A stretch of DNA of 63,991 nucleotides, the filler included, from Barthelona sp. PAP020 (Eukaryota): the NCBI GenBank assembly GCA_040182905.1. It is 11 parts of 11 records of this genome, joined end to end, with 100 filler letters (N's around TTAATTAATTAA, not from the genome) between each part and the next. Parts side by side here need not be neighbours in the genome. Positions count along the whole stretch, not along the records: positions 1 to 5,923 come from JARQWU010000572.1; 10 more parts are not named here. One strand, given 5' to 3'. The position numbers and the translations under genes were made by a program. Below are positions 3,309 through 59,435 of the stretch, piece by piece. Position 1 is the first letter of the stretch. Each line of letters starts with the position of its first letter. The notes below the pieces were generated by a model. It was not told where the DNA came from. It did no database searches and worked only from the letters and a program-made list of their open reading frames with translations.

Positions 3309-4366
3309 TTACACCACGCATAAAGCCATCAGATCCTCAAAGCTACATATTGCTAAATCTGTGGCCAAGACAGAGAACTCCAAAAAAGCATTTCTCATTG
3401 TTTCAGCGATCGATTGATATTTGGAGATATACATTTTGATGGAAAGGTCAATGAATTCATCAAAGTTCTCACGATTAACAGGTCGGTTGAGTAAAATTGG
3501 TATACAAAGGGTTTCAATGATGGGAATACCTTGAGACACAGATCACGATCAACACCATCAAACATGTTCAAAGAGCTGGTTGAAATGAGACCAAATGGGG
3601 TTGGTCCAAGAAGACAGATTGATATTTGGACCCGATGGATGAGGCAATGAAGAATGAAATAACTCAGTGAACGTAGGGTTGATTCTTCTAAATCATCATC
3701 AAGTTTGAATGATCCCCCATTTGTTTCGCCCATAAAGTTGAAACTAGTGGGATTATCAACAAGCCAATCAATGAAAGAGAGCAGAGTCAATGGTTCAGAA
3801 AAATCACTGAGTTTGAACATAATGTTCTTGGACACATTGCCAATGGTAAAGCAACGTTCAAAGAAAGAGCTGAATTGTTCATCCAAACGTTGCTCAACAA
3901 TCAACGGTTCACCTACTTCTAGGTTAAAGTTGAAACTTTCAAGAACATCCACAATGTGAATTGAACACCTTTCCTGAGTAGCAGATTTGTGCAAGTCATG
4001 TATTTTTTGTTCAAGTTGCCTCAAACTGACACGTTGTTTGATGTTCTGAGTGATACATTGAAGAATGATTTCATAGAGTTCATCAGTTTTATCAGCCCCT
4101 GCATTTTCGAAGCAGTTTTGTATGGTGATAACGCTTTCTTGCAAAAGAGTTGGATAAAACATACGAATCAGTAATTTACCTAAAGCGAAAATATCCATTG
4201 AAAAGTCAATATTTGCACTTACTAATGAGATTGGATCCATGTAAAGCGCCGTACCCTGTATCATAGTACCACTGGACATTGTACCTTCAGTTTGATATGC
4301 TGTTGCAAAATCACAGAGAGCCACACGTGAAGAAATAATTTTTTAGAACAGAAAATTCTCAGTGCA
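3309..4366 (-). pseudogene. Degraded kinase C-lobe fused to a HECT-like N-lobe
   Basis: CTENFLF*KIISSRVALCDFA...GTALYMDP...DIFALG has an in-frame TAA at 4343-4345 and no N-lobe. Downstream TLRSLSYFILHCLIHRVQISI and, after a frameshift near 3530, RPVNRENFDEFIDL...AETMRNAF...CSFEDL resemble HECT consensus blocks. Confidence 0.5.
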
Positions 4367-4403: not shown

Positions 4404-5609
4404 TCAATCATCAATTTCATCACTTTCATAATCACTTTGTTCATTGAAAAATGAGTGCATATTTCCACCCTTCATTTCATTAATGTCAATCAAGTCCCAA
4501 CATGTGTCAACAATCATGTTATATTCCTCTTCATTCATGCAAATACCTGCAGCTACCAATTGTCTTATGAGTTGAGTATCAATATTCAAAGCCATAAGAT
4601 TCGACAATACATAGCCACCATCCCTTGACAATCGAATGAGTTCCGCCTCATGTGAGGGGTTATAGTCAAAGACAATTGAATAGATTTTGATGACATTCCC
4701 TGCACATTTTCCACACGCTACTTGTGTGTTATCAGGGGATATAGCAAAGGAAAAACCGAAAGAGTTACAACCACAATGCACCTTTTGAATTTGATGATAG
4801 GTTTCAACATTGAATGAGGTAATATAACCATCACCAGACATAATAAGCAAGATATAGGGTGATAAGAAATGAAGACACCATATTTCACCACCCATATTAA
4901 ATGTATGAATGAGTGATCCGTCCTCCATGTCCCAGAGTTTGACTTTGTTTGAACAATCACCAACAGCAATCATTCTTTCAGTTGGGTGGAAATCAATAGT
5001 TCTAATTTCGCCATCTTGATGGAATGTACGAACAACAGACAAATCATCTGGGTCAACCAACTTGGCAATACCATCACCACATCCAGTCAAAAGATATTTA
5101 CCATCCGTTGATAGTTTCACTCTCCAAATAAATCTATTCGAAATTCTCTTTTCCAAGACAATTTCCCCACTATGTGTATCACTTTTCGTAAGAGTTCCAT
5201 TGCTATCACCATAATATACATAATTTGAACAAGAAGAAAAACAAATTCCATTAATATAATTTCCACCATTCAATCTACACAAGATGGAGAAATCTCGAAA
5301 GCTGTGTACAATGATAGACTTATCACGGGAACATGTTGCCAACTTCTGCCCATTTGGTGAAATGGCAATTTCATAAACTTGGTTTGTATGCTCTTTCAAT
5401 GTGCGATTCAATATTCCAGTTGCTACATCAATGACATGAACAGCTTGATAACTACCAACAACCAATTGTTTACCATTTGGCAAGTATTTACAGTCATACA
5501 AATTATTAGAAATCACATTTTCAATTTCACCTACACTATTTTCATCAATCTTTAGAGGAAATAAACCACGTAAAAATTCTCCTATTTCACCACTTGATTC
5601 AACAGACAT
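4404..5609 (-). CDS. WD40 beta-propeller protein with a conserved, unrecognised C-terminal domain
   Basis: WD repeats (EHTNQVYEIAISPNGQKLATCSRDKSI; DFHPTERMIAVGDCSNKVKLWD). The last ~80 aa match the C-terminus of the ankyrin protein at 18048-19808. Confidence 0.88.
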   Translation of the reverse strand: MSVESSGEIGEFLRGLFPLKIDENSVGEIENVISNNLYDCKYLPNGKQLVVGSYQAVHVIDVATGILNRTLKEHTNQVYEIAISPNGQKLATCSRDKSIIVHSFRDFSILCRLNGGNYINGICFSSCSNYVYYGDSNGTLTKSDTHSGEIVLEKRISNRFIWRVKLSTDGKYLLTGCGDGIAKLVDPDDLSVVRTFHQDGEIRTIDFHPTERMIAVGDCSNKVKLWDMEDGSLIHTFNMGGEIWCLHFLSPYILLIMSGDGYITSFNVETYHQIQKVHCGCNSFGFSFAISPDNTQVACGKCAGNVIKIYSIVFDYNPSHEAELIRLSRDGGYVLSNLMALNIDTQLIRQLVAAGICMNEEEYNMIVDTCWDLIDINEMKGGNMHSFFNEQSDYESDEIDD

Positions 5610-7495: not shown

Positions 7496-8506
7496 ATGAT
7501 TGATAAATTCCAGAATTATTTTAATACTTTTAGTGGGATGCTGTACTTTAAAAATGGTGAATTCTTTACTGACACTAATTTTTCTGTCACAAATGAATTA
7601 GGGATTCTATATGGTACAGGTATTTATGAAATCATTCCTGTATGTGATTCTAATTGTTTCAGAGCAAAGAAACATATTCAAAGATTTATTGAAAATTGTA
7701 GAAAAATAGATATGGATTTGGAATTTGATGATGATTATTTGGAAGAACAAGTGAATCTTCTTGTGCAAAAGAACAGTATTGGATTAGGTACTTGCACATT
7801 ATTGGCGACTCCGGGTAATTATCAGGGTGGTTATTGGTTCATTCCAGATAAATTTGAGCCAAATTTATTTATTTCTTGTGAAAACAGATGGATTCCAGAG
7901 CTTACAAACGAACCTGCCATTAGAGTAGCGCTTTGTCCTGATCCAAGAGCCTATACATGTGATATTAAATCAACCAGTTTATTACCCTCTCTTTTATTAT
8001 TGAAAGATCTTAAATCAAAGGGTTTTGAAGATGTGATTTTTTTTGACCGTCATAATGACAATGTCTTTCAATCATCACATGGTAACGTTTTTTTAGTCAA
8101 AAATGATGTTTTGTTTACACCCCCTGTAGGTCCAAAAGTGTTTGATGGATTCACAAGACAAGAAATAATAAAGATTGCGAATAAATTGGGTCTGATCTGT
8201 CGAATTCAAAATTTTTCCACGGATTTGCTGAAACGTTGTGATGCAGTTTTCATTGTTTCTTCAACTCAAATGGTATTGCGGGTAAGAATGATTGATGATA
8301 TTGAAATTCCTGAGGAAAACAGAATTGTTGAAGCAATTGAAGATGCTTATTTAGACATCATGGTGTCTGAGTGTTCAAAAGTTAATCAAATTTCTGAAAA
8401 AATTCCTGTCAGTACTCAGCTTCAAGTGGAAGATGCAATTCCAACAAACGAAGAAAAGGTGATCAAAGAGAAGGAAGAACCATTTGCTGGTATTGGCATC
8501 AAATAG
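7496..8506 (+). CDS. PLP fold-type IV aminotransferase, D-amino-acid transaminase-like
   Basis: GILYGTGIYE, HIQRF, CDIKSTSLL (catalytic Lys, cf. bacterial Dat CDIKSLNLL), GNVFLV, DGFTR. True start may be the ATG at 7538. Confidence 0.82.
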   Translation: MIDKFQNYFNTFSGMLYFKNGEFFTDTNFSVTNELGILYGTGIYEIIPVCDSNCFRAKKHIQRFIENCRKIDMDLEFDDDYLEEQVNLLVQKNSIGLGTCTLLATPGNYQGGYWFIPDKFEPNLFISCENRWIPELTNEPAIRVALCPDPRAYTCDIKSTSLLPSLLLLKDLKSKGFEDVIFFDRHNDNVFQSSHGNVFLVKNDVLFTPPVGPKVFDGFTRQEIIKIANKLGLICRIQNFSTDLLKRCDAVFIVSSTQMVLRVRMIDDIEIPEENRIVEAIEDAYLDIMVSECSKVNQISEKIPVSTQLQVEDAIPTNEEKVIKEKEEPFAGIGIK

Positions 8507-13196: not shown

Positions 13197-16100
13197 ATGA
13201 AAAATTTGGAAAAAAAAGGGTTTTATCTTTTCAATGACAATGCTTACAACCCAAACAAGTTGCTATTTAACTTTTGTGACACTAAGATTTTCATGGCAGT
13301 ACCTTTCTCAACCAAGGGAATAGAGTTTACAGGCTCAAATAGGAAGTTCCATGATGTGAAAGACATTTTTGTTGCTGGATTTGGAACTTCTCAAAATAAC
13401 ATTTCAAATTTTGCAAGCAAATTTGAAGGTGGTTTTTGTTATATTCTTGAAATTACTGATGATGACGTTTTGATTAATTATAAAACAATCCCCAAAGAAA
13501 ATATCAGAGTTTTGACTCCAAACAATATGAATATGATTAACACTTTTGATAAAACAATTAATTCCATGTATCCTAAGCTAATGGAACGTCAAGATCATTT
13601 ATTTCATCAAAAATTAGAAGTTAACTATGATAACCAGCAAATAACAATCGATAGAAAAAGTAATTTCAATGAGAAACTTACAACTATCATTCAAAAGTTA
13701 TCATATGTTTTAGGTATAAGTACAGCGTATTTCTTGTGCAAAAATGTGGATGACTTCACTGTTTACTTCAGGCTGTACCAACTTATCACTGAAGATCTTG
13801 GTATTTATCAATTTAAACCATGTAGTATTCAGGAAAATGATTCATTGACGACAAACATATCTAAAAAAACCGAATTTGAATATTTTAAAAACAATTTATT
13901 AATGAGCTCGATTCCTTTTAAAAATCGACAAATTGGTGGAGTTTTGCAAGAATTATACTTTAGAGGTTGGGCCAATGATGAGCCAGTTGATCTTCAAGCT
14001 TTAAAACAGTTCTTTTCAAAGTCCGTTAAATGTTTTGCTAATCGCAATTCGGATAATTTTTTTGATTTTTTTGAATATTCAAAGAAATTAATAGAGCATA
14101 TTGAAAGGCATGAGGATTTGAATCAAAAGTTAATTTTCTACAATTATGGATTGTTAAAAATTGATGAAGATATTCATTTTGTTCATGCTGATGAACTTGA
14201 AGATCTGAATAAATGGTATGATTTTTCCATTTATCGAATCACCTGCAATGTGTTGGACATTAATTTTTTGGGTTATCATAACGATGAATTACCGAATGGA
14301 TACTTCAAAATAGATGATGAAAAATTGATCACAATCAATTTGAAAGATGAAATTGTTGATCACAATATTTTGAAATATTTTAGCTTTCCTAAACCTGAAG
14401 ATTTAACCAATTTATTTATTTATCGAAAGGAATTATTTGAAGAAGTTGAAGAAAAAGAGCAATTTTTTGAATTGATAAATTATTTTCTTTTGTCTGAACA
14501 ATCTTATTATCAACGAGCAAAATCTTTGGTTTTTAATAGAAATTTACTTGATAAATGTGATATTATTGCTCGAAAATATACAAAATACATACGTAAGCGG
14601 TCCAACTACTTTGAAGGATTACCAATTTACTCTTCAAACAAATCAGTGTTGAAAATGTTTAAGGGAATGAAATTTGATGAACGAGAGATTACAAGTGTTA
14701 TAGATCTTCTTTATGGTTCTGGTGCTCAAGATTTTAGATCGAATTGTGAAAAATTAAATTTGGCTTATGACACTGCATCAATAAAGAAGCTTGAAGCATT
14801 TTTTGAATTATTTACTTTATTCAAATTTATTGAAGCAAAGAATAATATCATTAGATTGATAGATGATCACAAAGGTAATTTGGAGAGAATGGTCTGGACA
14901 TCTTTTTTTACTGATACATTTGAAAAGAATCAAACATTTGAAAGAATAGCAAACAACAAACACAATACTGTAAATGGATATTTTGAAAGAAAGAAAAATG
15001 AAGCTGGACTGTTGGACATTTTAAAAAACAGCAAATTTCCAAAAAAAAAATTCAAGAAAATAAGAGGTCTTTTATTTGATTCTGCTAATAGATACATGAA
15101 AATTATATTGATGAAACAGAAGATCATTGCAAAAAAACGTTTTTTGCAAAAAGAAAGAAAAGATTTCAAGTTAATTGCCATGAAGTTTTATGGTTTAAAC
15201 AAGCTAACAAATGGAATCGTTGAACTGGCATTCACAATTCCAATTGAACAGGAAGTTCAAAGGATTTTAAAGGGTGGTTTGTTTTTACTTGTTTCTTTAA
15301 AGCAATTTTTATCCCAAGGTGATAAATCAAGTGAATTGATTAAGTTTGGACTTTTATCCATAGTATCAGCGGTTTCGTCACAGGTTGTCATTTTTCGAAC
15401 ATGTACTGAATTTTCAAGGCCTGAATTTTTTACTGACCTTGAAACAGACAACATGAGTTATGTTGTTCCAATTAAATGCATGTCACAGGTTGCTTATCGA
15501 AATTTTAGAAATTTTCATGCTCATCTTCAAAGAGATGCTGAACCAAATAAAGGTATCAGGCATTTTAAATGGTGTGGTTTACCACCCAGTAATATATCTT
15601 CAAATGAATATTTGAAAATGAATAATAATTTTTTGACAAATAAAATTTGGAGAAAAGACAAGCCTAATGGGCAAAACACGTATGAACAATTAACAGATAT
15701 GCAAAAATTTGTTTTGATTAAGTTAATACTGACATTTTCGAAGCTGAATTCCTTTTTAAACACAAAGACGTTGAATATCAAGTTTTTGACTTCAATTTTG
15801 TGTCCTGCAGGTTCTGGTAAGTCTAGATTGTTAGGAATGACAATGGGATATCTTTTGAAAGAAAAGACCATCGATTTTTTGTGTCTTGGACCAAATTACA
15901 AGTCAATTGAAGCATCTGTGAAAAATATCTTTGATAATGTTGAATCAACCATCAATTACATACTGTTTTATCATGAAATCAATGAAAACAAAAGGATTGT
16001 TAATTATTCTAAATCAAAAAAGAAAAACCCTACAAAATACAATTCTGATTGTAGTTTTGTGCTGGATTTATGCTTGGGTGTGGAAAAAAATATTCATGAC

Positions 16101-17945
16101 ATGATTAAAAAGCATTTTGCGTCTGATTTAACCATATGTTGGAAACATGCCAATTTACCACCCAAACAATTTCCCTATATGCACATTGTCTCGTCATATC
16201 AAGACAAAGTTGTTGAGACACTTGTCTCAAAGATGAATTACAAGCATATTAATAATCCTTTTAACGATTTTGAAGAAGTTTTCACTTCTAAAAGGAATAT
16301 ATCAAACAATGTGATCCGTAAAATTTTACAAAAATATAAAGATTACAGTATTATAAAAGATTTTGAGGATTTAATTAAGATTTTGCTGGTTTTAGGCATG
16401 AAAACTGAATTTCGTCAAATATTGAAGCAAATAACTGTGCTTGTGGATAGCATTATTAATATTTCCAATATTTCTCATCTTTCAAACCGTAAAAAAATGG
16501 GCATCATCATGGCGCATGAGTTTATTGTGGATAAACTTAATGATTTTTCATTTCCAAGAATCATGGATACAAAAAGAAACAATGCCAAGATTTTTTGTTC
16601 AACAATTGATAGTTTTACAGGAGATATTACTAGGTCCATTATCTTAATGGATGAATCTTCCAAATCAGCATTTTGCAATGACTTAGCTTTGTTGTGTTGC
16701 TTTAACAGACCGTGTGTTTGTGTTTTTACAGGAGATACAACTCAATTGAAACCAAATATGGGAATTTCAGTGAGTAGAGCTTTGTTTACTGAATGTCTCG
16801 TTAAACATTTTGAAATTTCTGGTTTGGAATTGTTGAGTAAAATGTTGCTTCCTGCGCAACAATTTGCCTTTATTGATAATTTTCGATCTCATGAAATCAT
16901 AACAAGTTTTAATAGTGCCTTATTTTACGGAAATTTATTGAAACCAGGCACGCCCTTGAACTTGTTACCAAAAAGAATTGATAATGATTATCCTCTACAG
17001 TTTTTTAATATTAGTAGCTCGTGTGGGACAAGCATAAAACCAAAGAAGGGATATTCCTCATATCGTTTGGTTGAGTGTTATTTTGCCGTTAAAGTAGCGT
17101 ATGATTCTATTGTTAAGAATCGTTCTTGGAGATGGGAATTGGAAAGATTGCCAGAAAATGCTTTCACAAGTCATATTGGAATTATTGTTCCGTATAGAGA
17201 ACAAGCAAATCAAATTCAAGAAATTTTATTAAATGTTGCTTCTAGAAATCCAAATGGATTTGACCCAGAAATAACTCGTTACATGGATAAGATAAAAGTT
17301 GAAACTGTTGATAGCTTTCAAGGGGCAGAAGCTTCAATGATCATCTATTCGTTTACCAGGAGTTCGGGTAGATTTTCAAAGAATCAACTATCAGTTGGAT
17401 TCTTAAATAATTTTCACCGAATGTGTGTTGCTTTCACCAGAGCAAAATCTAAATTTGTTTTTGTTGGGGATTTTGACACTTTTCAAAGAGTTCCTACATT
17501 TGAGTTATTTTTCAACGGAATAGAATGTACAAATGGAAGCATCACTGGAAAGTCAGTATTCAAGGTTATGAAAAGCCATGGGAAGATGTTCAATGTTAAG
17601 CCTCATGATCATGAAAAATTCTTATTTAATTCTCAGTCTAAAATAGATGTGGATGAAAACTACGAAGAGAATGGGTGTTTGCAAGGTATTTCAGAAGTTG
17701 TGAAAGTTATGAAAAATTGTATCAATGAGCAAACAATGAATTTAAAGAAATGGACAGATGAACCAATGGAGAACCGGAAGTTAAAAGAAAAAATACCCAA
17801 CAGCAATGATTTAAAGAAATCACCATCTTCAAACAAGTCAAAAGATTGTTTTGTTTCTGTCAAAGAGAAAGAAGAATCTCAGAAGAAAAAAAAAAAAAAA
17901 GGAAAAAAAAAAAAAAAAAAAAAAAAACTGAAAAAAATTGATCAA
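13197..17945 (+). CDS. Superfamily 1 helicase, Upf1/DNA2/NAM7-like, with large unrecognised N-terminal region (3' truncated)
   Basis: CPAGSGKS (motif I), MDESSK (II), GDTTQLKP (III), NFRSH (IV), TVDSFQGAEA (V), RMCVAFTRAK (VI). Confidence 0.88.
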
Positions 17946-18047
17946 NNNNNNNNNNNNNNNNNNNNNNNNNNNNNNNNNNNNNNNNNNNNTTAATTAATTA
18001 ANNNNNNNNNNNNNNNNNNNNNNNNNNNNNNNNNNNNNNNNNNNNTC

Positions 18048-19808
18048 TATTTTGCAGCGCTTGAAGGTAATCTTGAAGTTGTCAAGCAATGTATTAAAGC
18101 TGGCGTTGATGTGAACAAACAAGGTAAGGAAGGAAGGACATCGCTTTGGGGAGCTTGTTTTGGTGGTCATATTGCAGTTGTTGAGTTTTTGTTGGATTTT
18201 GGTGCTAATGTTAATTTGAATATGAATGGGGGATATTCTTCGTTATATGTTAGTTGTCAAAATGGTCATCTTGATATTGCTAAAATTCTCTTAGATCATG
18301 GGGCTGATATTAATTTGTGTAGGGACGGTGGATATTCTTCATTGTACGTCAGTTGTCAAAAAGGCCATCTTGATGTTGCCAGAATGCTCTTAGCTCATGG
18401 GGCTGATATTAATTTGTGTATGAATGAAGGTGCTTCTCCATTGTACATAAGTTGTGAACTTGGTCATCTTGATGTTGCCAAAATGCTCTTGGATCATGGG
18501 GCTGATGTTAATTTGTGTGATAATGAAAGTTTTTCGCCATTGTACATCAGTTGTCAAAATGGTCATCTTGATATCGTCAAAATGCTATTGGATCATGGAA
18601 CTGATATTAATTTGTGTATGAATGAAGGTGCTTCTCCATTGTACATAAGTTGTCAACTTGGTCATCTTGATGTTGCCAAAATGCTCTTGGATCATGGAGC
18701 AGATGTTGATTTGTGTAAGGATGGTGCTTCTCCATTGTACATTAGTTGTGAAAAAGGTCATCTTGATGTTGCCAAAATGCTATTGGATCATGGAGCAGAT
18801 GTCAATTTGTGTCCTAATGATGGTGCTTCTCCATTGTACATCAGTTGTCAAAAAGGGCATCTTGATGTCGTCAAAATGCTATTGGATCATGGAGCTGATA
18901 TTAATTTGTGTCCTAATGATGGTGCTTCTTCATTGTACATCAGTTGTCAAAAAGGTCATCTTCATGTCGTCAAAATGCTCTTGGATCATGAAGCTGATGT
19001 TAATTTATGTAATAATTATGATGCTTCTCCATTGTACATAAGTTGTCAACTTGGTCATCTTGATGTTGCCAAAATGCTCTTGGATCATGGAACCGATGTT
19101 AATTTGTGTATGAATGAAGGTGCTTCTCCATTGTACATAAGTTGTGAACTTGGTCATCTTGATGTAGCTAAAATGCTCTTGGATCATGGAGCTGATGTTA
19201 ATTTGTGTAAGAATAATGGTGTTTCTCCATTGTACATCAGTTGTCAAAAAGGCCATCTTGAAGTTGCCAGAATGCTTTTGGATCATGAAGCTGATGTTAA
19301 TTTGTGTAGGGACGGTGGATTTTCTCCATTATATGTCAGTTGTTACAATGGTCATCTTAATGTTGCCAAGATGCTTCTAGATTGTCCCGAAATAAACCTA
19401 TATGGTGAAGATATGCTGTTATTTTTCAATATATTGTATACTTATGATGACCAATGGAAAAAAAACAAATACAGCATTTTGAGCTGTCCCAATTTAAAAC
19501 AACAATTGGAGAGTGGCGAGCCTGTTGATTTGAAATTTGAGCATTTGTCCAAATCCGAGTTGATTGAATTGGTGAAGGATAAGGGTTATCTTCTATCAAC
19601 ACTTGTTGAAATGAAGGTTGACAGTGTCATCATTCGAGAATTTGTCAGTGCTGGAGTTTACATGAATCAAAGAGATTTTGACATGTCAATCAACTTATGT
19701 TGGGATTTGATCGACATCAATGAAAGGAATGGTGGTAATATGCGTCAGTATATTGATGAAGAGATGGAAGATGATGACAGTGATGAGAGTGATGTCAATG
19801 ATGATTAG
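18048..19808 (+). CDS. Ankyrin-repeat protein (at least 14 repeats, 5' truncated) with a conserved, unrecognised C-terminal domain
   Basis: Frame is open from the contig edge (YFAALEGNLEVVKQCIKAG); repeats of SPLYISCxxGHLDVAKMLLDHGADVN; tail shared with the 4404-5609 protein. Confidence 0.92.
   Translation, partial: YFAALEGNLEVVKQCIKAGVDVNKQGKEGRTSLWGACFGGHIAVVEFLLDFGANVNLNMNGGYSSLYVSCQNGHLDIAKILLDHGADINLCRDGGYSSLYVSCQKGHLDVARMLLAHGADINLCMNEGASPLYISCELGHLDVAKMLLDHGADVNLCDNESFSPLYISCQNGHLDIVKMLLDHGTDINLCMNEGASPLYISCQLGHLDVAKMLLDHGADVDLCKDGASPLYISCEKGHLDVAKMLLDHGADVNLCPNDGASPLYISCQKGHLDVVKMLLDHGADINLCPNDGASSLYISCQKGHLHVVKMLLDHEADVNLCNNYDASPLYISCQLGHLDVAKMLLDHGTDVNLCMNEGASPLYISCELGHLDVAKMLLDHGADVNLCKNNGVSPLYISCQKGHLEVARMLLDHEADVNLCRDGGFSPLYVSCYNGHLNVAKMLLDCPEINLYGEDMLLFFNILYTYDDQWKKNKYSILSCPNLKQQLESGEPVDLKFEHLSKSELIELVKDKGYLLSTLVEMKVDSVIIREFVSAGVYMNQRDFDMSINLCWDLIDINERNGGNMRQYIDEEMEDDDSDESDVNDD
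18210..19380 (+). repeat. Array of highly similar ~99-bp ankyrin-coding units
   Basis: Recurrent ggtcatcttgatgttgccaaaatgctcttggatcatgg. Confidence 0.9.
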
Positions 19809-32029: not shown

Positions 32030-35000
32030 ATTGAAGTCTTGCAAGAACAGGATCGAGTCTCACATTTCATAATCATTCACTGGACAAAAGAAACAACACA
32101 AAACAAAATTTCACGTTAGACGAAAGGGCAAAATTAAAGGCTTTAATTTATATTTGCTAACTGGGGTTGGGGAAATTACTCCATGGTATCTTTGCTGTTT
32201 TGGTCAACCGATTCAGAATTCTTTGAGTCCATATCGTTCTGAATCGGTCTCACAGTAAATGACTTTGCCGCATAAAGTCTTACCATTTCGTCTGTTTTCC
32301 AACCACCAATAGCCTTTAAGTATTCGAGATCGCCACCTTGTCTTCCGAATCGACTTGTTTCGTCGGTAGCTACCTGAAATAATTCTCTTGCTCTCCCTCT
32401 TCTGAATGAGTGTAAGGTCAATGGGTAATCGAAGTTGTGATGTTTCGAAAACCTTCTCATAACCGTTGCAAGCTTGTCATTAATTTTTCTAATCTCTTCG
32501 TAGTTGTTTGTTAGTGCTAAAATCTTTTGATTTTCCAGGCGTTTGAGATATTTTCCAAATGTTGCGCTGATCTTACCGTTGTGTAGTGTCCGTAACAGTT
32601 CGTCTTTGAAAATCACTACTTCTTTCACAGATTTGACCTTTTGACAGTATATGAAAATGACCACTGTTTTCTTTCCTAATCTGTAAGAAATGTTTCCTCC
32701 CTCCAGATCTGACCTCCTGGAACATGTGAAGTATAAAGTAACGGCTGTCTCAATCATGTGTCTTTTAGTATCTTCGTCCTCATTGACTTCTTCTTGGATA
32801 TATTTTGATAGCATGAGAAGCTGTCTTTTTGTCATGGCTGTTCGAGGTATGTGCTCTTCAGCTTTTGGTGGTCTTAATCTTTTGTTTCGTTTCACAACCA
32901 TCCCATGCAAGCTTTCATAACCAGGACTTGGTGACCATCCCGCAGCTTTCCAAAAGAATGTCACACCTGTGTACATTCTAGCCAGTGTTTCTGTCTTCAT
33001 TCTGTATTTTCCATCTTCAGTCCTTTTGTCTCCTTCTTCCGTAATGAATTTGTGTAGTAATAATTCAGTAAATTGATCGATTCTGTCATGTTTGTCGTCT
33101 TTACCATTTTTTCTGCAGTAAGAAAGGAATCTTGTAAAGTATGCTTCGTATTGTCTCCATGTTGATTCAGCAACACTTTCTTTCATATTCTTAAATACGA
33201 ACGGATCCATCCAAGTACATAAATCTTCTTTCTCATCTTCTACCTCATCAGCTATAAATTCTCCATTGGTCGTACTTCCTTTGACTTCGATTCCTCTTCC
33301 ATTGTCAAACTTCTCCACCAAAGGATACCAAGCCGGATATGTATGTTTACTAACTCCTCTGACTGAAATGTTCTTTCCAAATCTTACAGCTCGCAACATC
33401 AAATCAAGTACCATATTTTCTTCTGTTTCCTTGTAGTAAAGCTTATCTCCAATCTTTGTTGTAGCTGTGTAAAACAGAATGGAATCGTATCCTATAGTCG
33501 CAAAATCGTTATCATTGGCTAGTGGATCTTTTCCGATTTCTGGCAATGTTTCTTCAGTAGGATCTTCTTTTACCTCTGCTACTTCCTTCCATAAATCTTC
33601 AGTTATCATTTGAGGAAATTCTCCAGTTCTGATTCTTTCCCTGTCTACCAATCTTCGAATAGTCTTTGATTTTCCTTGTAAACTTCTTCCGGTTCGATTC
33701 TTAAATGTCTTACATTTTCTCAAAGACGTAAATGAGGGATAAGCGTAATCTGGGATAACAAACTCATCTGGACATAAAGTAATGTCTGAGAAAACTCCTC
33801 TATTGGGAAGAGTTATCGTCTGGTTCCTCGATAGCAAATCTGCAAACGTGTTTCTTTCTGTAGGAATCCATATCGGGTATATGTGACAGTTTAGTTTCTC
33901 ACACATTGCCCAAACATCTCTAGCAATTTCTTGCAGTTCAGCTGAACCACTCTTTTGTTTCCTAAAAGCAGCCAAAGCGTTCTGATTGTCCACAAGCCAA
34001 GCCCAACACGCGTCTTTGGCGTTAGTTTTCATATGTGTTAAGGCTTCTTTGAGAGCTATCATTTCTAAAGCTGCAATATTGTTGGGTAACCCTTTGTTTT
34101 TTGTACTTTTCTGCAAGCTTTTAACAACCTGACTAGTTTCTAAAACTGCACCTAACCCTTTTAGTGATGCATCTGTTGCTATCACTCCAGTAACCACACG
34201 TGGTGATAAATTTCCATCAATTCTCACCTCTAATAGATGGCGAATCTTATCTGTAAGATGTTTTGTTTGTCCTAGTTTCACTTTACCAAAAAACTTAGCT
34301 AGTTCTTTCATATCACTACATCCTAAATAATGCTTTTTGTGATGTATTGCGTTTCCTAGTTCTAAGCTCATACTTCGGTATCTTTGTGAAACTATTGAAG
34401 CTGATTGAAGTTTTCCTTGTAGTGATAATGCTTCTTCGATCGTAATTTCTTCAGTACATAAGTCCAGCATCTTTTTTCTCTTATCCATTGGCAACCAAAT
34501 CTTCTTATCTTTTGTATTGATTTTAAATCCTAAATATTCTACTTCTGTGGTAGGATTTTGAATTTTTGAGGTTTTTACTTTAAAACCAACGTATTTTAGT
34601 ATGAGCAAAACTTTTTCCAAATTCTCTTTGCATTCCTCCAATGATTCTCCTCCAATTAGAAGATCATCAACATACTGTAGAACAAAAATTCCTGATGCTC
34701 TTGCAAATTCAACTGGGACCTGAAGTGCCAACGAGAACAATTGCGCTGAAATTGATGAACCAAAAGGCAACTTAACAGCTCCATATTCCTTTCCTTTTAC
34801 GTTAACAACCGTATTTTCTAGCCATTCAGGGCTTAATGGAATATGGGTGTACCCGCTCTCAATATCAATAACTGCTGCGTATTTTGGAATGAGAGGGAAG
34901 TATCTACCTACATTGATTTCATGAGGCCAAATTTCTGAGACTGCATTAAGAGGAGTTGTATCTAGGATGGGTCTAACAGTTCCGTCTTTCTTTAGCACAG

Positions 35001-35836
35001 CACCCAGTCCCGCTTCTCTTTTTTTCTCCCCCTTAAAAGGTTTTAAAACACCTTCTTTTATCCATTGCTGGAGAACTTCTTCTGTTTTTTCCCCAGCCCA
35101 ATTTTTAACCCCTTTTATTATGCCCGTTTCGTCCAACAAGGTTGGTGCACCATTAACCACCTTTTCCAACGACTCTATTTCTTTTTCGTCGTACTTCAGG
35201 TGCAGAGCCAAGTTCTTAAAGCCTTCAGGATTCCATTCTCCTTTTGCTTTGGCAATTTCATTCCAGATTGTATCTGGGCTTTTGACATCATCAACCATTT
35301 GAATCTTTTCTTTTGTTTTTTCCAATAATGGTTGAGTTACTTGGTTCTCTTTCTCCTTTTCTTTCTTCTTCTTTTGAGCTTTCCAATCTCTGGTGAAAGC
35401 TTTCCTCAATCTTTTTATTTCGTTCTTTTCCCGGCAAAGACGAGTGTTTTCTTTCAATAATTTTTGAATTGTCCTCTCTCCAGAGGGCCGGGAAAAATAA
35501 ACGGAATCTTTTTTTTGATTGAGTGCTGGATATGGCACCGTAACTCCATGATCCTTTCTCAAATCACGAGCGAATGTTTTTAATTCGTCGTTCCACATTT
35601 CGAGTGTTTCAAACTCCTTTGTTGTTTCTAAGAGAATTGGGATGATTTCATTCATATTAATTCCTTCAATATTGGCAGCTTTTAAAAAATCTCCAATAAA
35701 AAGCATGATCGGAATATAAACATTAGCCTTTTTGAAAAGAAATTTCCCCTCATCGAAATTTCGGTCGGGTTTTCTAAATTGAACCCAACCAAAAATTTCC
35801 TTCATCCATTTTTGATGTCGAACCAACTTCTTGAGT
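32030..35836 (-). mobile_element. Tyrosine-recombinase (DIRS-order) retrotransposon, 5' truncated; 3' boundary approximate
   Basis: Encodes RT, RNase H and tyrosine recombinase; visibly less AT-rich than its flanks. Confidence 0.9.
32176..35835 (-). CDS. Polyprotein: RT + RNase H + possible degenerate methyltransferase + SAM-like domain + tyrosine recombinase
   Basis: DIESGYTHI, LPFG, YVDD (34663-34674), YLG; TDAS, LEMIAL, VDN, ADLLSR; STWRQY; catalytic R (CSRRSDL), HSFRRG, GGWK...RLY; frame is open to the contig edge. Confidence 0.92.
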   Translation of the reverse strand, partial: LKKLVRHQKWMKEIFGWVQFRKPDRNFDEGKFLFKKANVYIPIMLFIGDFLKAANIEGINMNEIIPILLETTKEFETLEMWNDELKTFARDLRKDHGVTVPYPALNQKKDSVYFSRPSGERTIQKLLKENTRLCREKNEIKRLRKAFTRDWKAQKKKKEKEKENQVTQPLLEKTKEKIQMVDDVKSPDTIWNEIAKAKGEWNPEGFKNLALHLKYDEKEIESLEKVVNGAPTLLDETGIIKGVKNWAGEKTEEVLQQWIKEGVLKPFKGEKKREAGLGAVLKKDGTVRPILDTTPLNAVSEIWPHEINVGRYFPLIPKYAAVIDIESGYTHIPLSPEWLENTVVNVKGKEYGAVKLPFGSSISAQLFSLALQVPVEFARASGIFVLQYVDDLLIGGESLEECKENLEKVLLILKYVGFKVKTSKIQNPTTEVEYLGFKINTKDKKIWLPMDKRKKMLDLCTEEITIEEALSLQGKLQSASIVSQRYRSMSLELGNAIHHKKHYLGCSDMKELAKFFGKVKLGQTKHLTDKIRHLLEVRIDGNLSPRVVTGVIATDASLKGLGAVLETSQVVKSLQKSTKNKGLPNNIAALEMIALKEALTHMKTNAKDACWAWLVDNQNALAAFRKQKSGSAELQEIARDVWAMCEKLNCHIYPIWIPTERNTFADLLSRNQTITLPNRGVFSDITLCPDEFVIPDYAYPSFTSLRKCKTFKNRTGRSLQGKSKTIRRLVDRERIRTGEFPQMITEDLWKEVAEVKEDPTEETLPEIGKDPLANDNDFATIGYDSILFYTATTKIGDKLYYKETEENMVLDLMLRAVRFGKNISVRGVSKHTYPAWYPLVEKFDNGRGIEVKGSTTNGEFIADEVEDEKEDLCTWMDPFVFKNMKESVAESTWRQYEAYFTRFLSYCRKNGKDDKHDRIDQFTELLLHKFITEEGDKRTEDGKYRMKTETLARMYTGVTFFWKAAGWSPSPGYESLHGMVVKRNKRLRPPKAEEHIPRTAMTKRQLLMLSKYIQEEVNEDEDTKRHMIETAVTLYFTCSRRSDLEGGNISYRLGKKTVVIFIYCQKVKSVKEVVIFKDELLRTLHNGKISATFGKYLKRLENQKILALTNNYEEIRKINDKLATVMRRFSKHHNFDYPLTLHSFRRGRARELFQVATDETSRFGRQGGDLEYLKAIGGWKTDEMVRLYAAKSFTVRPIQNDMDSKNSESVDQNSKDTME

Positions 35837-46289: not shown

Positions 46290-47297
46290 ATGCAAAAAGA
46301 CATAATTGTTACCGTTAAAAACATCGAACAAGCGATTTCTTATCGAGATTTGAACTGTACTCACTTCAGAATCAATTCTTCACATATTCCCACCGTAGAA
46401 TTGTTGGAACAATTTGTGAATGAATATGCACAAGACTCCAAATTGTGTAAAATACCATTATTTGTTGATTTACAAGGTTGTAAATTTCGTTTAACAAGTT
46501 TTCAACCCATTTTTGATCTCAGCGAAAATGATGAAGTTATTTTATGCTTTGAAGATGAATCGAATGATTTACATGATAAAAATATTCTGTTTGTTGAACA
46601 CAGGGTTTTACAATATATGAATGAAGTTTCTGAAATTTCAATCAATGACGGAAAGGTTTTATTAGGGGAAATCAGGGAAATCGACGGTATTTATAAGGCT
46701 AATGTTCTCAAAGGTGGAAAAATTTTGCCCAGAAAGGGTTTTAATATTAGTCCTCATCCTTTGCAACGTGTTGAATTAACTCAAAGAGATATTGATTTTG
46801 TTAATGTCACTAAAAGGTTTGATTTTATTCGTTATTGTTTATCTTTTGCATACAATGTTGAAGAAATCACACATTTGAGGTCAATCGCAGGTAATCGCCA
46901 TATTTGTTCCAAAATTGAGCGAGAAATGAGTTTAGAACGCTTGACACAACTTACGGATATTTCAGATTCAATCTGGATTTGTCGAGGTGATTTAGGTGCT
47001 CAATTAAAAGAAGAATTACCAATTTTTTATCATCATGTGATTTTGAATTTTATGAAAAATTATAAAGGTAATGTCCCTGTTATTATGGCTGGAGAAGTGT
47101 TGGAGCATATGGCAGAATCAATTGTTCCCACCAGGTCTGAAGTTTGTCATCTTACTGACTTGTATTATTACGGTTTTGCTGGAATTGTTCTTTCAAACGA
47201 AACAGTTTCAGCCCATAACGTTGAGCATGCTGAAAAGATTGTGAATACTGCATTCAATACTTTTAACACTCTCAGCAATTATGATTATAAGGCTTAA
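46290..47297 (+). CDS. Pyruvate kinase, short form lacking the C-terminal regulatory domain
   Basis: RINSSH, DLQG.K.R, NDG, KGFN, SKIE, RGDLG, PTRSEV, LSNET; ends shortly after the barrel (335 aa). Confidence 0.85.
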   Translation: MQKDIIVTVKNIEQAISYRDLNCTHFRINSSHIPTVELLEQFVNEYAQDSKLCKIPLFVDLQGCKFRLTSFQPIFDLSENDEVILCFEDESNDLHDKNILFVEHRVLQYMNEVSEISINDGKVLLGEIREIDGIYKANVLKGGKILPRKGFNISPHPLQRVELTQRDIDFVNVTKRFDFIRYCLSFAYNVEEITHLRSIAGNRHICSKIEREMSLERLTQLTDISDSIWICRGDLGAQLKEELPIFYHHVILNFMKNYKGNVPVIMAGEVLEHMAESIVPTRSEVCHLTDLYYYGFAGIVLSNETVSAHNVEHAEKIVNTAFNTFNTLSNYDYKA

Positions 47298-53962: not shown

Positions 53963-54232
53963 AAGTGAATTGTTTTTTCTTCCATTTATTTTGTAAAAAA
54001 AAAAACTTTTAAATGGCTAAATTGGGTTTAAAGTGATATGTGAGTCTTTAAAGGGAATCTTGAAACACCTGAAACGGAAAATGAATAATTTTTAAAAAAA
54101 ACAATAAAAACATAATATAACAGCATTTTAGACACAATTTTTATCAGCAAGTGAAAATTTATGTTTTTGTAAAAACAACACAGTTTGAATGAACTTTTGA
54201 TTTTTTTCTTTTCTTTGAAATCTTCATTTATC

Positions 54233-57200
54233 ATGTCAAATACTCTTGAAAAATTTTCACAAACGTTGTTAGAAGTTGGTAATAATAATTTTTGTAATTT
54301 TATTGATACAATCAAATCTGTTGATTTTCTTTCTGTGTTTAGTTGCCTTTGTCAAACTGATATTCCTATTTTTGAGATTACTATGTCGATGGTATCTAAT
54401 TTTGTTGATCATCAAGAAGCTAATGAAGAAGCGATTATTCTTTTTTTTAGAGTTGTGTGGTTATCGACTGCATTTGAAGAATTATTGGAGACACGAGCCG
54501 AATTGGCAAATGATAGAACATTTCAAAAGTGTTTGAATCAATTCTATGAGAATTGTACTGTTGCCTCCAATATTATTAAAAAGACAACTGAACGTAGCTT
54601 TTTAGGCAAGTTTGTATTTGGAGGGAAGGATTTAGAAAATATTACAAAGTTACATGGAAAATTCGACAGTATTAATGGGGATCTACAACTAATACTGAGT
54701 TCAAAAATAGCAACTTTTCCAGAAACAATTCAACAACATATCACGACCCATCTAAATGACATGAATCAAAAGTTAATGGAAGAATTGCAAAAAAATTATA
54801 ATAAGATGGAGGATAACCACAAGGAGCTTACTAACACGCTTTCCTTAATCTTGACCAAATTTGATTCGATGGAACGTAAGAATAAATTGCAAACTTTGCT
54901 GGGAAAAATTGAAAATAACGTAAATCTTAATGATTTACGAAATTTTAACATTCCAGTTATTGATTCTAAAGAAATTTCTTATTCTAGAGAGCTTGGAAGA
55001 GGAGGTTATGCCACCATTCTGAAGGGTAGATATAAGCGATGTGATGTTGCTGTTAAAGTACCTTATAATGCATCTAAAGAGCAAGTATTGAATGAGTGCA
55101 TTTCTATATCATTTATTCATCGATTTATTTGCAAAATTTATGGAATTACCCAGAAAGACGGACAATGGAGCATAGTTATGGAATACTGTCCAAGTACACT
55201 TGAAAGAAAAATGAAAACAATGACTGTCATTGAGAAGCTTGAAAGTCTTATTCAACTGGCAGATGCATTAAGTTGTTGTCATGATAAAGGGATCATTCAT
55301 CGAGATGTCACTCCTAAAAATGTATTAATCAGAGAAGATGGAACTGTTGCATTGTGTGATTTTGGCCTTGTACGCAGTCTAGAAAGAAACAGTGCATTAT
55401 CAACGTTTGGGACTGTCCATTATATGCCACCTGAATTGTTCACTGAAGAAAACCCTGTTGCACATCCTGGAATTGATTCATGGTCGTTTGGTGTTACTTT
55501 TTTTGAAGTGATGAGTGGTTGTACTCCTTTTGAAGGAATTGCTCATCACTTAGTCAATATGAAGCTTGCTTCTGGCAAAAAACCTTTTGAAAATATTGAT
55601 TGGATTGTGGGTTATGAATTTATTTTCAAGTGCTTCAACTCCGAAGCCAATAATAGACCAATGTTTCATGAAATCATAAAATATTTGGAAAGCACATTGA
55701 ATGATATGGAGAATGTTGTTGATGTGTATACAAACAAGTTGATACTACCTAAGACTCCCAATGTTGTTGTCGATATTACCACTTCTAATTATCAAAGTAT
55801 GATCACAAAGTATGCTATTGATGTGGCTGATGATCTTTCTAGTGATTTTGTGATTGATTCCAGTGATTTTTTTGATATTGCTGTGGGGAAAATCCAGGAG
55901 GGCGATATGACATTTACTAAGCAATGCATCAAAGCTGGGTTGAAGTTGAATACACAGGATAATCAAGGAGTTAGCCTTTTGTATGTCGCTGCTAAAAATG
56001 GATATGTTGATATTGTTAGGATGCTTATCGATTTCGGGGTCAATATCAATGTATGCACAAATGAAGGACATTCCCCTTTGTTTATATCATGTAAAAATCA
56101 ACATATTGAAACCGTGAAAGTTCTTCTGAATTTTGGAGCAATTGTTGATTGCAGTCTTAATTTTGATTGTTCTCCAATATACACTGCTTGTAATCAAAAC
56201 CAATACGATATGGCTTGTCTTTTGCTGGATTACATTCAAAATATCAATCAAATATATCAACCTAATGACCTTTCCTTGTTGTATATTTGTTGTGAAAAGG
56301 GGTATTATGATATTGCTAAGCTTTTGTTGGAACGTGGTGCCAATGTAAATCAAACTATTGCACAAGGCTGTACTTGCTTGTATGCTAGTTGTTATTTCAA
56401 CCATAATCGCATTGTTGAGTTGCTTTTAGATAATGGGGCCAACGCTGACAGCTCCAAAAAAAACTTCTTGCCTTTATTTGCTGCTTGTAGTTTTGGAAAT
56501 TTTGAAATTGTCAAATTGCTTTTAAAATATGAGGCCAACGTGAATCAAATGAGAAATGATGGATATTTTGCATTATACTGTAGTTGTGATAATGGTCATT
56601 TAGAGATTGTCAAATTGCTATTGGATCACAATGCTAATATGAATCAAATAACCAATGAAGGTTTTTCTTCGTTATTTATTAGTTGTCTAAAAGGACACTT
56701 AGAAATAACTAGATTATTAGTGGAGCGTAAAGCCAATATCAATCAACTTACAAATGATGGTCGTTCTCCATTGTACTGTAGTTGCGAGAAAGCACACTTA
56801 GAGATTGTCAAATTGTTGTTGGAACATAATGCCAATGCCAATCAACTTACAAATGATGGTCGTTCTCCATTGTACTGTAGTTGCGAGAAAGGACACTTAG
56901 AGATTGTCAAATTGTTGTTGGAACATAATGCCAATGTCAATCAACTTACTGATGCTAATTTTTCTCCATTGTACTGTAGTTGCGAGAAAGGACACTTAGA
57001 AATTGTCAAATTGTTGTTGGAACATAATGCTGATGCAAATTACATCACTTTTGAAGAATGTTCTTGTTTATATGTTTGTTCTTATTACAATTTCGAGAAC
57101 CTCGTCAAATTACTTTTACATCATGGAGCTGATGTTAATTTGACTGGAAATAATTTTTCTCCTCTGATTGCTAGTTGCTCTCAGGGGCACTTTGAAATTG

Positions 57201-57856
57201 TGAAATTGCTTTTGGAAAATGGGGCTCATGTCAATGAACTAAATGAAGATGGGAATTTTCCCTTATTTACCAGTTGTATGAATGGACATTACGAAATTGT
57301 CAAGTTACTCTTGGACTATGAGGTTGATTTGAATCAGTTATCAAAGGAAGGTTCTTTTGCATTAAAAATAAGTTATGAAAAAGGTCATCATGATATTTTC
57401 AAATTACTCTTGGAACATGATGTTGATGTGAATCAAAAATCTAAAGATGGTTTTTTCTTGTTATACGACTGTTGCTGTGCTCAACGAGATGATGATGTCA
57501 AATTGCTTTTGGAACATGGAGCAGATCCAAATCAAACAGTAAATGGTGGATTTACTTCCCTGTATGCTGCATCTAACGATGGAAGTTATAATATTGCCAA
57601 AATGCTTTTGGAATATGGTGCTGATGTCAACCATCTGGGAAATGATGGTTATTCATCTCTCCATATAGCCTGTTGTGAAGGTCATTATGACATTGTAAGA
57701 TTGCTGTTACAGAATGGAGCTGATGTGGATATTTTGAGTTGCAAAGATCAAAAAGCTATTGACATGGCAAAATCAAGGAATTTCACGAACATTGTTGACT
57801 TGTTATCAGAGCCATTGTCTGCGCAAGAGAATAATATTTGTTGTTCTATTCAATAA
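54233..57856 (+). CDS. MLKL-like N-terminal four-helix bundle + TKL-type kinase + ~19 ankyrin repeats + C-terminal CaaX
   Basis: NTD ~54365-54697 (..IIKKTTERSFLGKFVFGGKDLENITKLHGKFDSINGDLQLIL); kinase GRGGYA, VAVK, HRD, DFG, DSWSFG; ANK ~55900-57800; ends CCSIQ*. Kinase and ANK are certain; the MLKL-NTD call is by eye. Confidence 0.88.
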   Translation: MSNTLEKFSQTLLEVGNNNFCNFIDTIKSVDFLSVFSCLCQTDIPIFEITMSMVSNFVDHQEANEEAIILFFRVVWLSTAFEELLETRAELANDRTFQKCLNQFYENCTVASNIIKKTTERSFLGKFVFGGKDLENITKLHGKFDSINGDLQLILSSKIATFPETIQQHITTHLNDMNQKLMEELQKNYNKMEDNHKELTNTLSLILTKFDSMERKNKLQTLLGKIENNVNLNDLRNFNIPVIDSKEISYSRELGRGGYATILKGRYKRCDVAVKVPYNASKEQVLNECISISFIHRFICKIYGITQKDGQWSIVMEYCPSTLERKMKTMTVIEKLESLIQLADALSCCHDKGIIHRDVTPKNVLIREDGTVALCDFGLVRSLERNSALSTFGTVHYMPPELFTEENPVAHPGIDSWSFGVTFFEVMSGCTPFEGIAHHLVNMKLASGKKPFENIDWIVGYEFIFKCFNSEANNRPMFHEIIKYLESTLNDMENVVDVYTNKLILPKTPNVVVDITTSNYQSMITKYAIDVADDLSSDFVIDSSDFFDIAVGKIQEGDMTFTKQCIKAGLKLNTQDNQGVSLLYVAAKNGYVDIVRMLIDFGVNINVCTNEGHSPLFISCKNQHIETVKVLLNFGAIVDCSLNFDCSPIYTACNQNQYDMACLLLDYIQNINQIYQPNDLSLLYICCEKGYYDIAKLLLERGANVNQTIAQGCTCLYASCYFNHNRIVELLLDNGANADSSKKNFLPLFAACSFGNFEIVKLLLKYEANVNQMRNDGYFALYCSCDNGHLEIVKLLLDHNANMNQITNEGFSSLFISCLKGHLEITRLLVERKANINQLTNDGRSPLYCSCEKAHLEIVKLLLEHNANANQLTNDGRSPLYCSCEKGHLEIVKLLLEHNANVNQLTDANFSPLYCSCEKGHLEIVKLLLEHNADANYITFEECSCLYVCSYYNFENLVKLLLHHGADVNLTGNNFSPLIASCSQGHFEIVKLLLENGAHVNELNEDGNFPLFTSCMNGHYEIVKLLLDYEVDLNQLSKEGSFALKISYEKGHHDIFKLLLEHDVDVNQKSKDGFFLLYDCCCAQRDDDVKLLLEHGADPNQTVNGGFTSLYAASNDGSYNIAKMLLEYGADVNHLGNDGYSSLHIACCEGHYDIVRLLLQNGADVDILSCKDQKAIDMAKSRNFTNIVDLLSEPLSAQENNICCSIQ
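56741..57030 (+). repeat. Three near-identical 99-bp ankyrin units
   Basis: Units start at 56741, 56840 and 56939 (aatcaacttac...tctccattgtactgtagttgcgagaaag.acacttaga). Confidence 0.9.
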
Positions 57857-58262
57857 TCTTTTTTTTGAAACTGTAATTTCTCATGGAAAGAGCAGTGGAC
57901 TTAAATTAACCTAGATAAATGAATTTTATTTTTTCTATGTGTGGAATCCTTTTCGACTTTTCCAAACTTGAGATTAGTCTCTCATGGGATTATTAGCAAA
58001 TAATAATCCTTAATCTTTAATTCTATTGAAGTCCAGCATTCCTTTTGGGAATCCTTCAATCTTAAAACTTTCATTTCTTGGGCTATCATGTGGAAGCTGG
58101 TGTATATTCCAAAAGAAACATTCCTCATTCTGCTTAGGGTCGATCAATTGCTATTTTTTCACAGAGTTATACAAAAAACAAACTAACTAAAATTTACATG
58201 CAAGAAAAAAATACTTAATAAACATGTATTGAAAAGAAATATAACCCCACAAACAGACCTTC

Positions 58263-58490
58263 CTATTCATCAGCGTCATACTCATCATCTTCTATCTCTT
58301 CATCAATTTCCTGACGCATATTGCCACCTTTTTTTTTTTTTTTAATGTCGAGCAAATCCTAACAATCGTTGATTGACAGGTCAGGTCAAAATCTCTATAT
58401 ATTCATGTAGAATCCAATAGTGACAAATTCTCAAATGATGCCACTTTTTGCTTTCATTGCAACAAGTGTTGATAAAAAATAGCCCTTGTA
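58263..58490 (-). pseudogene. Decayed relic of the shared C-terminal domain
   Basis: KGYFLSTLVAMKAKSGII*EFVTIGFYMN...SINDC*DLLDI...GGNMRQEIDEEIEDDEYDADE* aligns with 19581-19808, and similarity continues past the stop codon. Confidence 0.85.
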
Positions 58491-58840
58491 TGTAAATTTT
58501 TTCTGTGTTAATTGATCAAAATATGGAGAAGACCCCGAATTTCTCGAAGTTTATCTTAAATGGCTCAAATTTCTGATAATTTACTTATAAATGGACCAAA
58601 ATTTTGAGAAAGTTAATGACAATGAAAGAACAGAAAGATTGGATCTCGTAAAAAGAAACGCCTCATCAAAAACTCTCTCATTTTTAAAGAAGTAAAAAAA
58701 GCCGAGATTAAATTATTTTTATTATAATGTTGCCCAAAAGTTCAACGTGCAGAAAACAATAAGTTTTTGGCGAACATTTTTTTTTTTTTTTGAATGAAAC
58801 AAATCTTTCAAGAAAACCACTCAATAAAAAAAAAGCACAG

Positions 58841-59435
58841 ATGAATATTGAAAATTTATTGTCTTTAAACCCAAATGCTATGTGGATTGATCTTTTTAAA
58901 GCAATTCCCAGTGAAAGTGACGACACTTTGTGCTCATTTTTTTCCAAATATCTTTCTCGTGGAAGAGATTATCGTTTCAAATCTTGCTCACCAAAATGTT
59001 TTGAATTATTGGTTCTCCATCATCATACAAGATATGTTCAATTGTTTTGTGAGTATCATATTGTATCTGAAAATTTGTCATTTTTGCCTTTAAATAAAGG
59101 TTATCTTGATATTTATGCGATACTATATCTGTACGAGAAAGATAGCGTCAGATTGGACAAATTACCATCTTCAGAAAAATTTCAATCACTTAGTTATCAC
59201 AAAAATGCAGTTCAAAGTCTTGCTTTGAATGAAGATTACATTGTTTCTGGATGTTATGAAGGGAAAGTCAATGTATTTGCAATAAAGGATGAATTTTCTC
59301 GAGTATTTTCGATCAATATTTGTAGTTTCATCACTAAAGTCAAGATAACTTCGCGATATGCGTTTGCTGCTACTCATTCTGGTATATTATATGTTGTTGA
59401 TCTTCAGTTAATGAAATGCTTCAATCATTATATTG
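58841..59435 (+). CDS. Protein with helical N-terminus followed by WD40 repeats (3' truncated)
   Basis: YHKNAVQSLALNEDYIVSGCYEGKVNVF. Confidence 0.65.

Follow-up and report, generated by a model that had tools for sequence, protein, structure and literature searches.

A constant helical domain at the C-terminus of diverse repeat proteins in Barthelona sp. PAP020 and its possible role as a docking module

Why do a WD40 protein and an ankyrin protein, encoded on different contigs of the metamonad Barthelona sp. PAP020, end in the same stretch of about 70 residues, and what might this shared tail do? The stretch of DNA in which both genes lie, here called the window, comprises 63,991 nucleotides and is composed of 11 AT-rich pieces of about 6 kb each with 10 spacers between them. 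The first carrier of the tail is encoded by an intron-less gene at 4404..5609 (-), recognized by its ORF, Pfam, the predicted structure and a fold match. Its product of 401 residues consists of an N-terminal amphipathic helix (residues 3-16, 5562..5603 (-), predicted structure), a WD40 propeller (residues 19-314, 4668..5555 (-)), the new C-terminal domain (copy 1, residues 318-391, 4437..4658 (-), delimited by tblastn, a 58-copy profile and the predicted structure) and an acidic C-terminal tail (4407..4436 (-), ORF and predicted structure), the last being modelled with low confidence. The seven-bladed β-propeller in the N-terminal part is confirmed by both Pfam (WD40, E 3e-27) and a fold search, in which residues 22-311 superimpose on the WD40 chain 5yzv_A with Z 39.3 and an rmsd of 1.8 over 282 aligned positions. 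Within the new domain, the alignment of 58 copies defines a conserved core (residues 345-387, 4449..4577 (-)) that contains all six invariant residues. The domain starts about 15 bases earlier than had been proposed, as its first helix begins at residue 318, i.e. at position 4658.

The second carrier is an ankyrin-repeat gene at 18048..19808 (+) (ORF, Pfam), the 5' end of which is cut by a spacer. It contains tandem 33-residue repeats (Pfam Ank, 13 stretches, E 1e-95) and closes with the same tail domain as the WD40 protein (copy 2, 19548..19763 (+), tblastn and 58-copy profile), followed by an acidic tail to 19805. In a tblastn search of the window the WD40 and ankyrin tails are identical at 38 of 81 positions (E 5e-24), the best match that is not a copy having an E-value of 0.009. 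Both tails described in an earlier note on this DNA are present where it had placed them, and its claim that they align without gaps holds for the 70-codon core, but not for the acidic tail, in which there is one gap. The third, decayed copy that it had reported turns out to be a pseudogene of the ankyrin-type tail at 58263..58487 (-) (tblastn, 58-copy profile, DNA alignment), which matches the ankyrin tail with E 3e-20 and carries small indels and four in-frame stops, two of them at the codons of a conserved R and W. The DNA of this copy is 74% identical to that of the ankyrin copy (243/328), the 3' flank included, and weaker DNA similarity covers 58151-58602. The stops, the indels and the extension of DNA identity into the 3' flank identify it as a decayed duplicate of the end of an ankyrin-type gene. 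When all six frames of the window were compared with the 58-copy profile, exactly these three loci matched (E 5.7e-36, 3.1e-31 and 2e-10; next E at least 3.3).

Further genes lie around these copies. A kinase C-lobe remnant without an intact N-lobe (3395-4342 (-)) is located about 60 bases behind the WD40 gene, and the ORF at 13197-17993 (+) encodes a protein of about 1600 residues in which a long N-terminal part without annotation accompanies an AAA_12 domain of a superfamily-1 helicase (E 3e-32). One ORF at 32176-35826 (-), cut by a spacer, resembles a DIRS-type retroelement: besides a reverse transcriptase (E 2e-18), it weakly matches RNase H and tyrosine recombinases. The ORFs at 7496-8506 (+) and 46290-47297 (+) encode an aminotransferase of class IV and a short protein with a pyruvate-kinase barrel. 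The gene at 54185-57856 (+) codes for a kinase followed by about 17 ankyrin repeats, with a faintly MLKL_N-like N-terminus (E 0.11). This protein lacks the new tail and terminates in CCSIQ, which we take to be a CaaX-like motif. Its first repeats are the closest match of the cut ankyrin ORF at 18048, which may therefore likewise encode a kinase-ankyrin protein.

How large is the family to which the three copies belong? A search with the WD40 tail as single query gave six relatives among 14 candidates. None of the 27 candidates returned for the ankyrin tail was a relative, which reflects a miss of the word index, since a profile afterwards recovered ankyrin carriers. This 8-row profile yielded 35 relatives among 7,994 scored candidates (annotated as WD40 in 30 cases, as ankyrin in four and not at all in one), one of the 35 being 93% identical to the WD40 tail of the window, and 41 relatives, 28 of them new, among 1.84 billion representatives. 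In total, 63 relatives were collected, or 68 if cluster members are counted, and at identity levels of 90, 80 and 70% these 68 collapse into 61, 58 and 56 clusters, respectively. The large family that had been suspected from three copies in 11 contigs thus amounts to 56-61 distinct proteins. Of the 63, 26 were traced to their origin, and all 26 belong to Barthelona sp. PAP020 in EukProt, as do five additional cluster members; the remaining 37 comprise 19 with a EukProt label and 18 for which no source is shown. No relatives of the tail were found in the viral, metagenome and prokaryotic contigs searched, and the ESM Atlas gave no usable tail match, with the relative P0010 returning only unnamed or propeller-driven matches. 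Two giant-virus metagenome contigs carry genes for an Elongin C-like protein and for a Skp1 without introns (L001:136-633 and L004:441-926, respectively). As the large databases were searched in a single pass with a narrow 8-row profile, the confinement of the family to one barthelonid lineage is provisional. Given 6,305 predicted proteins in Barthelona sp. PAP020 (PMC11316075), tail carriers make up about 1% of the proteome, a loose figure as it mixes transcript and genome counts. In the passages of the literature on Barthelona, Skoliomonas and related terms that were examined, no description of the tail family was found, and the main text of the barthelonid genome paper never mentions ankyrin, WD40, cullin or ubiquitin.

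The layout of the carriers is strikingly uniform at one end and diverse at the other. In 70 of 70 proteins (the 68 and the two window copies) the tail is present once, always C-terminal, ending 2-26 residues before the C-terminus, and in 51/58 copies the residues behind the GGN motif add up to a net charge of -4 or lower. After removal of the tail, the 67 proteins longer than 200 residues were sorted by their N-terminal parts into groups that lack mutual similarity at E 1e-6, resulting in 50 WD40 proteins, eight ankyrin proteins, two pairs and five singles. The N-terminal part of P0044 resembles the armadillo repeats of importin-α (E 5.5e-8), and this protein has only the tail in common with the ankyrin carrier P0055 (E 2e-10; next 0.18), which, judged by eye, starts with a kinase-like region. 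Three long carriers, P0057, P0058 and P0064 (877-961 aa), gave no match to a propeller profile; the label "double propeller" used in the tree was assigned by eye. Accordingly, the idea of interchangeable N-terminal partners was borne out and extends beyond WD40 and ankyrin to armadillo-like and unclassified scaffolds. A tree of the tails (58 rows at less than 90% identity, two fragments excluded) unites the three ankyrin rows in one clade (100/98), but only 4 of its 55 inner branches are well supported. The ORF at 58790-59434 (+), cut by a spacer, has a layout like that of some carriers, i.e. a helical N-terminus followed by WD40-like repeats, and shows no BLAST match to tail carriers at E 1e-3.

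Such repeat proteins with a common end might also be the parts of a signalling system, similar to the use of death-fold or TIR domains, in which the repeats would sense ligands and the tails would oligomerise or recruit a single effector, as in immunity. Birth-and-death evolution including a pseudogene would suit this reading, as would the kinase-like and ankyrin regions of P0055, the former judged by eye, and the fact that the cut ankyrin ORF is best matched by the first repeats of the kinase-ankyrin protein of the window, whose N-terminus faintly resembles MLKL_N (E 0.11). However, the tail is never found twice in a protein and never at the N-terminus (70/70), no full-length stand-alone adaptor was found, the two matches of 59 aa looking like transcript fragments, and no nucleotide-binding sensor domain occurs among the carriers scanned. 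We therefore regard a signalling or self-association role as unlikely.

What is constant in the tail is best seen from the 58 copies. R349, G355, L373, N377, G382 and N383 are invariant in all of them, and D372 (57/58), G381 (55/58), W371 (54/58) and C370 (50/58) are nearly so; the motif CWDLIDINE..GGNM, which the earlier note had called invariant on the basis of the window copies, does not persist as such across the family. Pairwise identity of the 58 cores ranges from 18 to 88% with a median of 38%. As six residues are invariant in 58/58 copies at a median identity of only 38%, a recent gene conversion is ruled out as the origin of the similarity, and instead of a few copies produced by one such event without purifying selection we find 56-61 diverged proteins. 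Across 50 aligned propeller proteins, 1134 of the 1225 pairs show higher conservation in the tail than in the propeller, and 18 of the 74 columns of the tail, as compared to 15 of 296 propeller columns, are conserved to at least 80%. For the two intact copies in the window, dN amounts to 0.37 and dS to about 2.0, the latter being near saturation. Purifying selection on the tail is supported by these sequence comparisons.

The polar character of the invariant set (R, D, N, N) and its clustering around a Gly-Gly loop would be compatible with an active site or a site for a ligand or metal, e.g. in a stand-alone E2-recruiting ligase module that is targeted by the repeats. With about 70 residues the domain is small for an enzyme, though, and its only conserved Cys, C370, is replaced in 8/58 copies, which rejects a catalytic Cys; an EF-hand is rejected likewise, the canonical pattern being present in 0/58. 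We consider a role of the tail as catalytic or ligand-binding site very unlikely.

Does the tail belong to a domain family that already has a name? No profile of Pfam, PHROGs or NCBIfam matched any of 42 tails at the cut-off or with a convincing E-value, and neither these collections nor PDB sequences and fold searches gave a clear, let alone strong, match to a named domain, in agreement with the initial impression of an unrecognized domain. F-boxes start with an LPxE-type motif, which is found in 0/58 tails. Using the BC-box consensus from PMC13342108, we found this motif, searched anywhere in the last 100 residues, in 1/58 tails; L324 and S328 are found in helix 1, but where a BC-box has its last hydrophobic residue there is a Gly, together with a predicted loop. 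The Cul5-box (LPxP) is present in 0/58 tails, the Cul2-box (hydrophobic-Pxx-hydrophobic-xxx-hydrophobic; PMC5216831) in 3/58, and there is no conserved proline. Moreover, the Pfam profiles of SOCS, VHL, F-box and PRANC match none of 42 tails at E-values up to 10. With both motifs and profiles absent, membership of the tail in the SOCS, VHL, F-box or PRANC families is rejected, which for the SOCS-box consensus had already been noticed from the window copies.

The one Pfam family with a recurrent signal is UBA_BIRC2-3 (PF21290), which matches 5 of 42 tails, always in one register of about 42 residues and always below threshold (best E 0.0011, 19.5 bits as compared to a cut-off of 27.2). Helices 2-4 might accordingly form a divergent version of the UBA bundle with affinity for ubiquitin or ubiquitin-like domains, in which case the carriers would act as receptors for ubiquitin or as shuttles towards the proteasome or Cdc48. 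UBA domains typically contain an MGF loop motif, MG[FY]. This motif occurs in 0/58 tails (a loose form in 7/58), no other UBA or CUE profile matches, and the match does not extend to the invariant N377 and GGN, so that we assign a UBA-like function only a slight probability.

Structure prediction adds a fold to these patterns. In the model of the 401-residue protein the domain consists of five helices (318-328, 334-340, 345-353, 360-379 and 385-394). Five helices are likewise obtained if the tail is modelled alone (pLDDT 80, pTM 0.64), whereas the whole protein reaches pLDDT 94 and pTM 0.88, with 87-97 for the tail and a disordered acidic end. A Foldseek search with the tail model in PDB and BFVD gave no E-value below 1, whereby the model may miss a helix supplied by the N-terminus. 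VIA returned only weak, unrelated helical matches among 48,161 chains (best Z 4.2), and a best Z of 2.4 on the 43 chains from Foldseek. No entry for SOCS, F-box, UBA, bromodomain, SAM or death-fold domains is among the best 50 fold matches listed for the tail. Matches at this level neither identify the fold nor demonstrate that it is a new one. Full-length fold searches are dominated by propellers, and none of the 50 chains listed extends past residue 344.

The rise in pLDDT of the tail from 80 in the isolated to 90-97 in the full-length model, although the alignments differ too, would be expected if the tail were a structural cap or a localisation tag, possibly derived from a decayed ankyrin pair or half a bromodomain, without any shared partner. 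The tail also shows weak sequence matches to ankyrin-1 (E 0.74) and to the C-terminal half of the BAZ2B bromodomain in PDB sequences (E 0.07, and 0.46 with eight rows). Bromodomains are four-helix bundles with a ZA loop and a conserved Asn. The bromodomain match is lost with the 42-row profile, and Pfam finds no bromodomain in 42 tails. As to the ankyrin pair, the similarity of the profiles is within the range of column shuffles (hhalign probability 1.65, exceeded by 2/40 shuffles, which reach 4.67), and this origin is rejected. Finally, a cap would suit neither propeller, ankyrin and armadillo scaffolds alike, nor would it be expected to be more conserved than these scaffolds, making a mere cap or tag highly improbable.

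The model hints at where the tail lies relative to the propeller. Given the strands at 19-29 and 306-314 and the order of strands in the WD40 topology, both termini should exit on the bottom face, suggesting that the tail domain lies there and leaves the top face free. The N-terminal helix 3-16 likely packs against the tail domain; it has hydrophobic residues at I/V9, I/L/V13 and L/F17 across the family. Loops of the top face vary more than those of the bottom face (p 9e-5). An entropy of 3.6 bits is found two positions before strand a, and the hot-spot ring of the propeller is mostly aromatic or Arg. More variable top-face loops are common among WD40 proteins. Variability and hot-spot ring fit a diversified target binding, to which they lend weak support.

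In summary, the tail is a genuine, unnamed domain family. It is small, present once per protein and has a clear invariant patch, and it sits on scaffolds that duplicate, diverge and decay, the family itself showing both duplication and loss by pseudogenization. For a constant, constrained terminal module on interchangeable scaffolds, docking to a shared partner is the simplest explanation, and we consider it probable that the tail is the docking site for one common partner. In such a scheme the helical tail would plug dozens of diverse repeat proteins into one shared machine: its five helices are predicted to be held rigidly against the propeller, each paralogue would select its own target through the variable top face or the ankyrin or armadillo groove, and the common partner would be bound by the invariant R/W/D/L/N/GGN residues, although these could be structural instead. 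As the best-known systems of the same layout are substrate receptors of cullin ligases, ligase recruitment is, by analogy, the most likely form of docking, and we tentatively suggest, at somewhat less than an even chance, that the tail docks its carriers onto the ubiquitin-ligase machinery, most likely of the cullin type. Against this count the missing BC-box, cullin-box and F-box motifs and profiles as well as the fact that conservation peaks in the C-terminal half of the domain and not in the first helix, where a BC-box would lie.

A bolder variant, which we regard as possible but rather doubtful, is that barthelonids have invented a new class of ligase-recruiting box that has no relation to the F-, SOCS-, VHL- or H-box and was attached to proteins of the WD40, ankyrin, armadillo and kinase-ankyrin types. 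The carriers, about 1% of the proteome, would then constitute a private repertoire of substrate receptors, and the ligase on which they dock would be rewired or independent of cullins, all this in a lineage with relatives that have lost much of the canonical machinery. To our knowledge, only a handful of docking boxes are known for cullin-type ligases. If the docking reading is true, it would demonstrate, in a deep-branching anaerobe, that re-invention of the substrate-receptor layer is possible, and would provide a direct handle on the control of protein turnover in metamonads. The narrow range, one lineage, limits the significance, but even if the tail oligomerises or binds ubiquitin, it would still be an uncatalogued domain on roughly 1% of the proteins of one lineage. 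As for the ligase background in metamonads, the literature is mixed: one survey found neither Skp1 nor Cullin1 in Giardia (PMC7029713), Skp1 is reported in all metamonads examined (PMC6759080), and Carpediemonas is described as having BTB-Kelch fusions that resemble Cullin 3 adaptors (bioRxiv 10.1101/2021.03.14.435266).

Compared with known systems, the tail family is probably a new variant of a known docking scheme, so far limited to one lineage. Its layout is that of SOCS-box proteins (WSB, ASB; CRL5) and VHL-box proteins (KLHDC, FEM1; CRL2), i.e. an interchangeable propeller or ankyrin domain with a constant C-terminal helical box (PMC10591846, PMC5216831, PMC4353913), KLHDC10 being described as a propeller followed by such a box (PMC10591846) and the ankyrin-SOCS and PRANC proteins as ankyrin repeats with a C-terminal box (PMC4353913). 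In contrast to these boxes of about 40 aa, the tail domain has about 70 residues, lacks the consensus of either the BC-box or the cullin-box and contains a conserved CWDL-D-N-GGN segment, followed by an acidic tail, that has no counterpart there. With the poxviral and rickettsial ANK-PRANC/F-box proteins, which are reported as ankyrin proteins in multiple copies that possess a linker as well as a C-terminal box (PMC4353913), it shares the general architecture, but it has no PRANC or F-box profile match and no LPxE, and its carriers are mostly WD40 proteins. To the IAP-type UBA domain (PF21290) it is related only by the sub-threshold similarity over about 42 residues in 5/42 tails, and differs in lacking the MGF loop, in having two additional helices and in the location of invariant residues beyond the matched part. 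The expansion of ankyrin-RING E3 ligases in Giardia, with 30 such proteins reported (PMC7029713), offers a further parallel: the barthelonid module, which lacks a zinc-ligand pattern, is not a RING, yet in both cases metamonad repeat proteins have multiplied with a constant module at their C-terminus.
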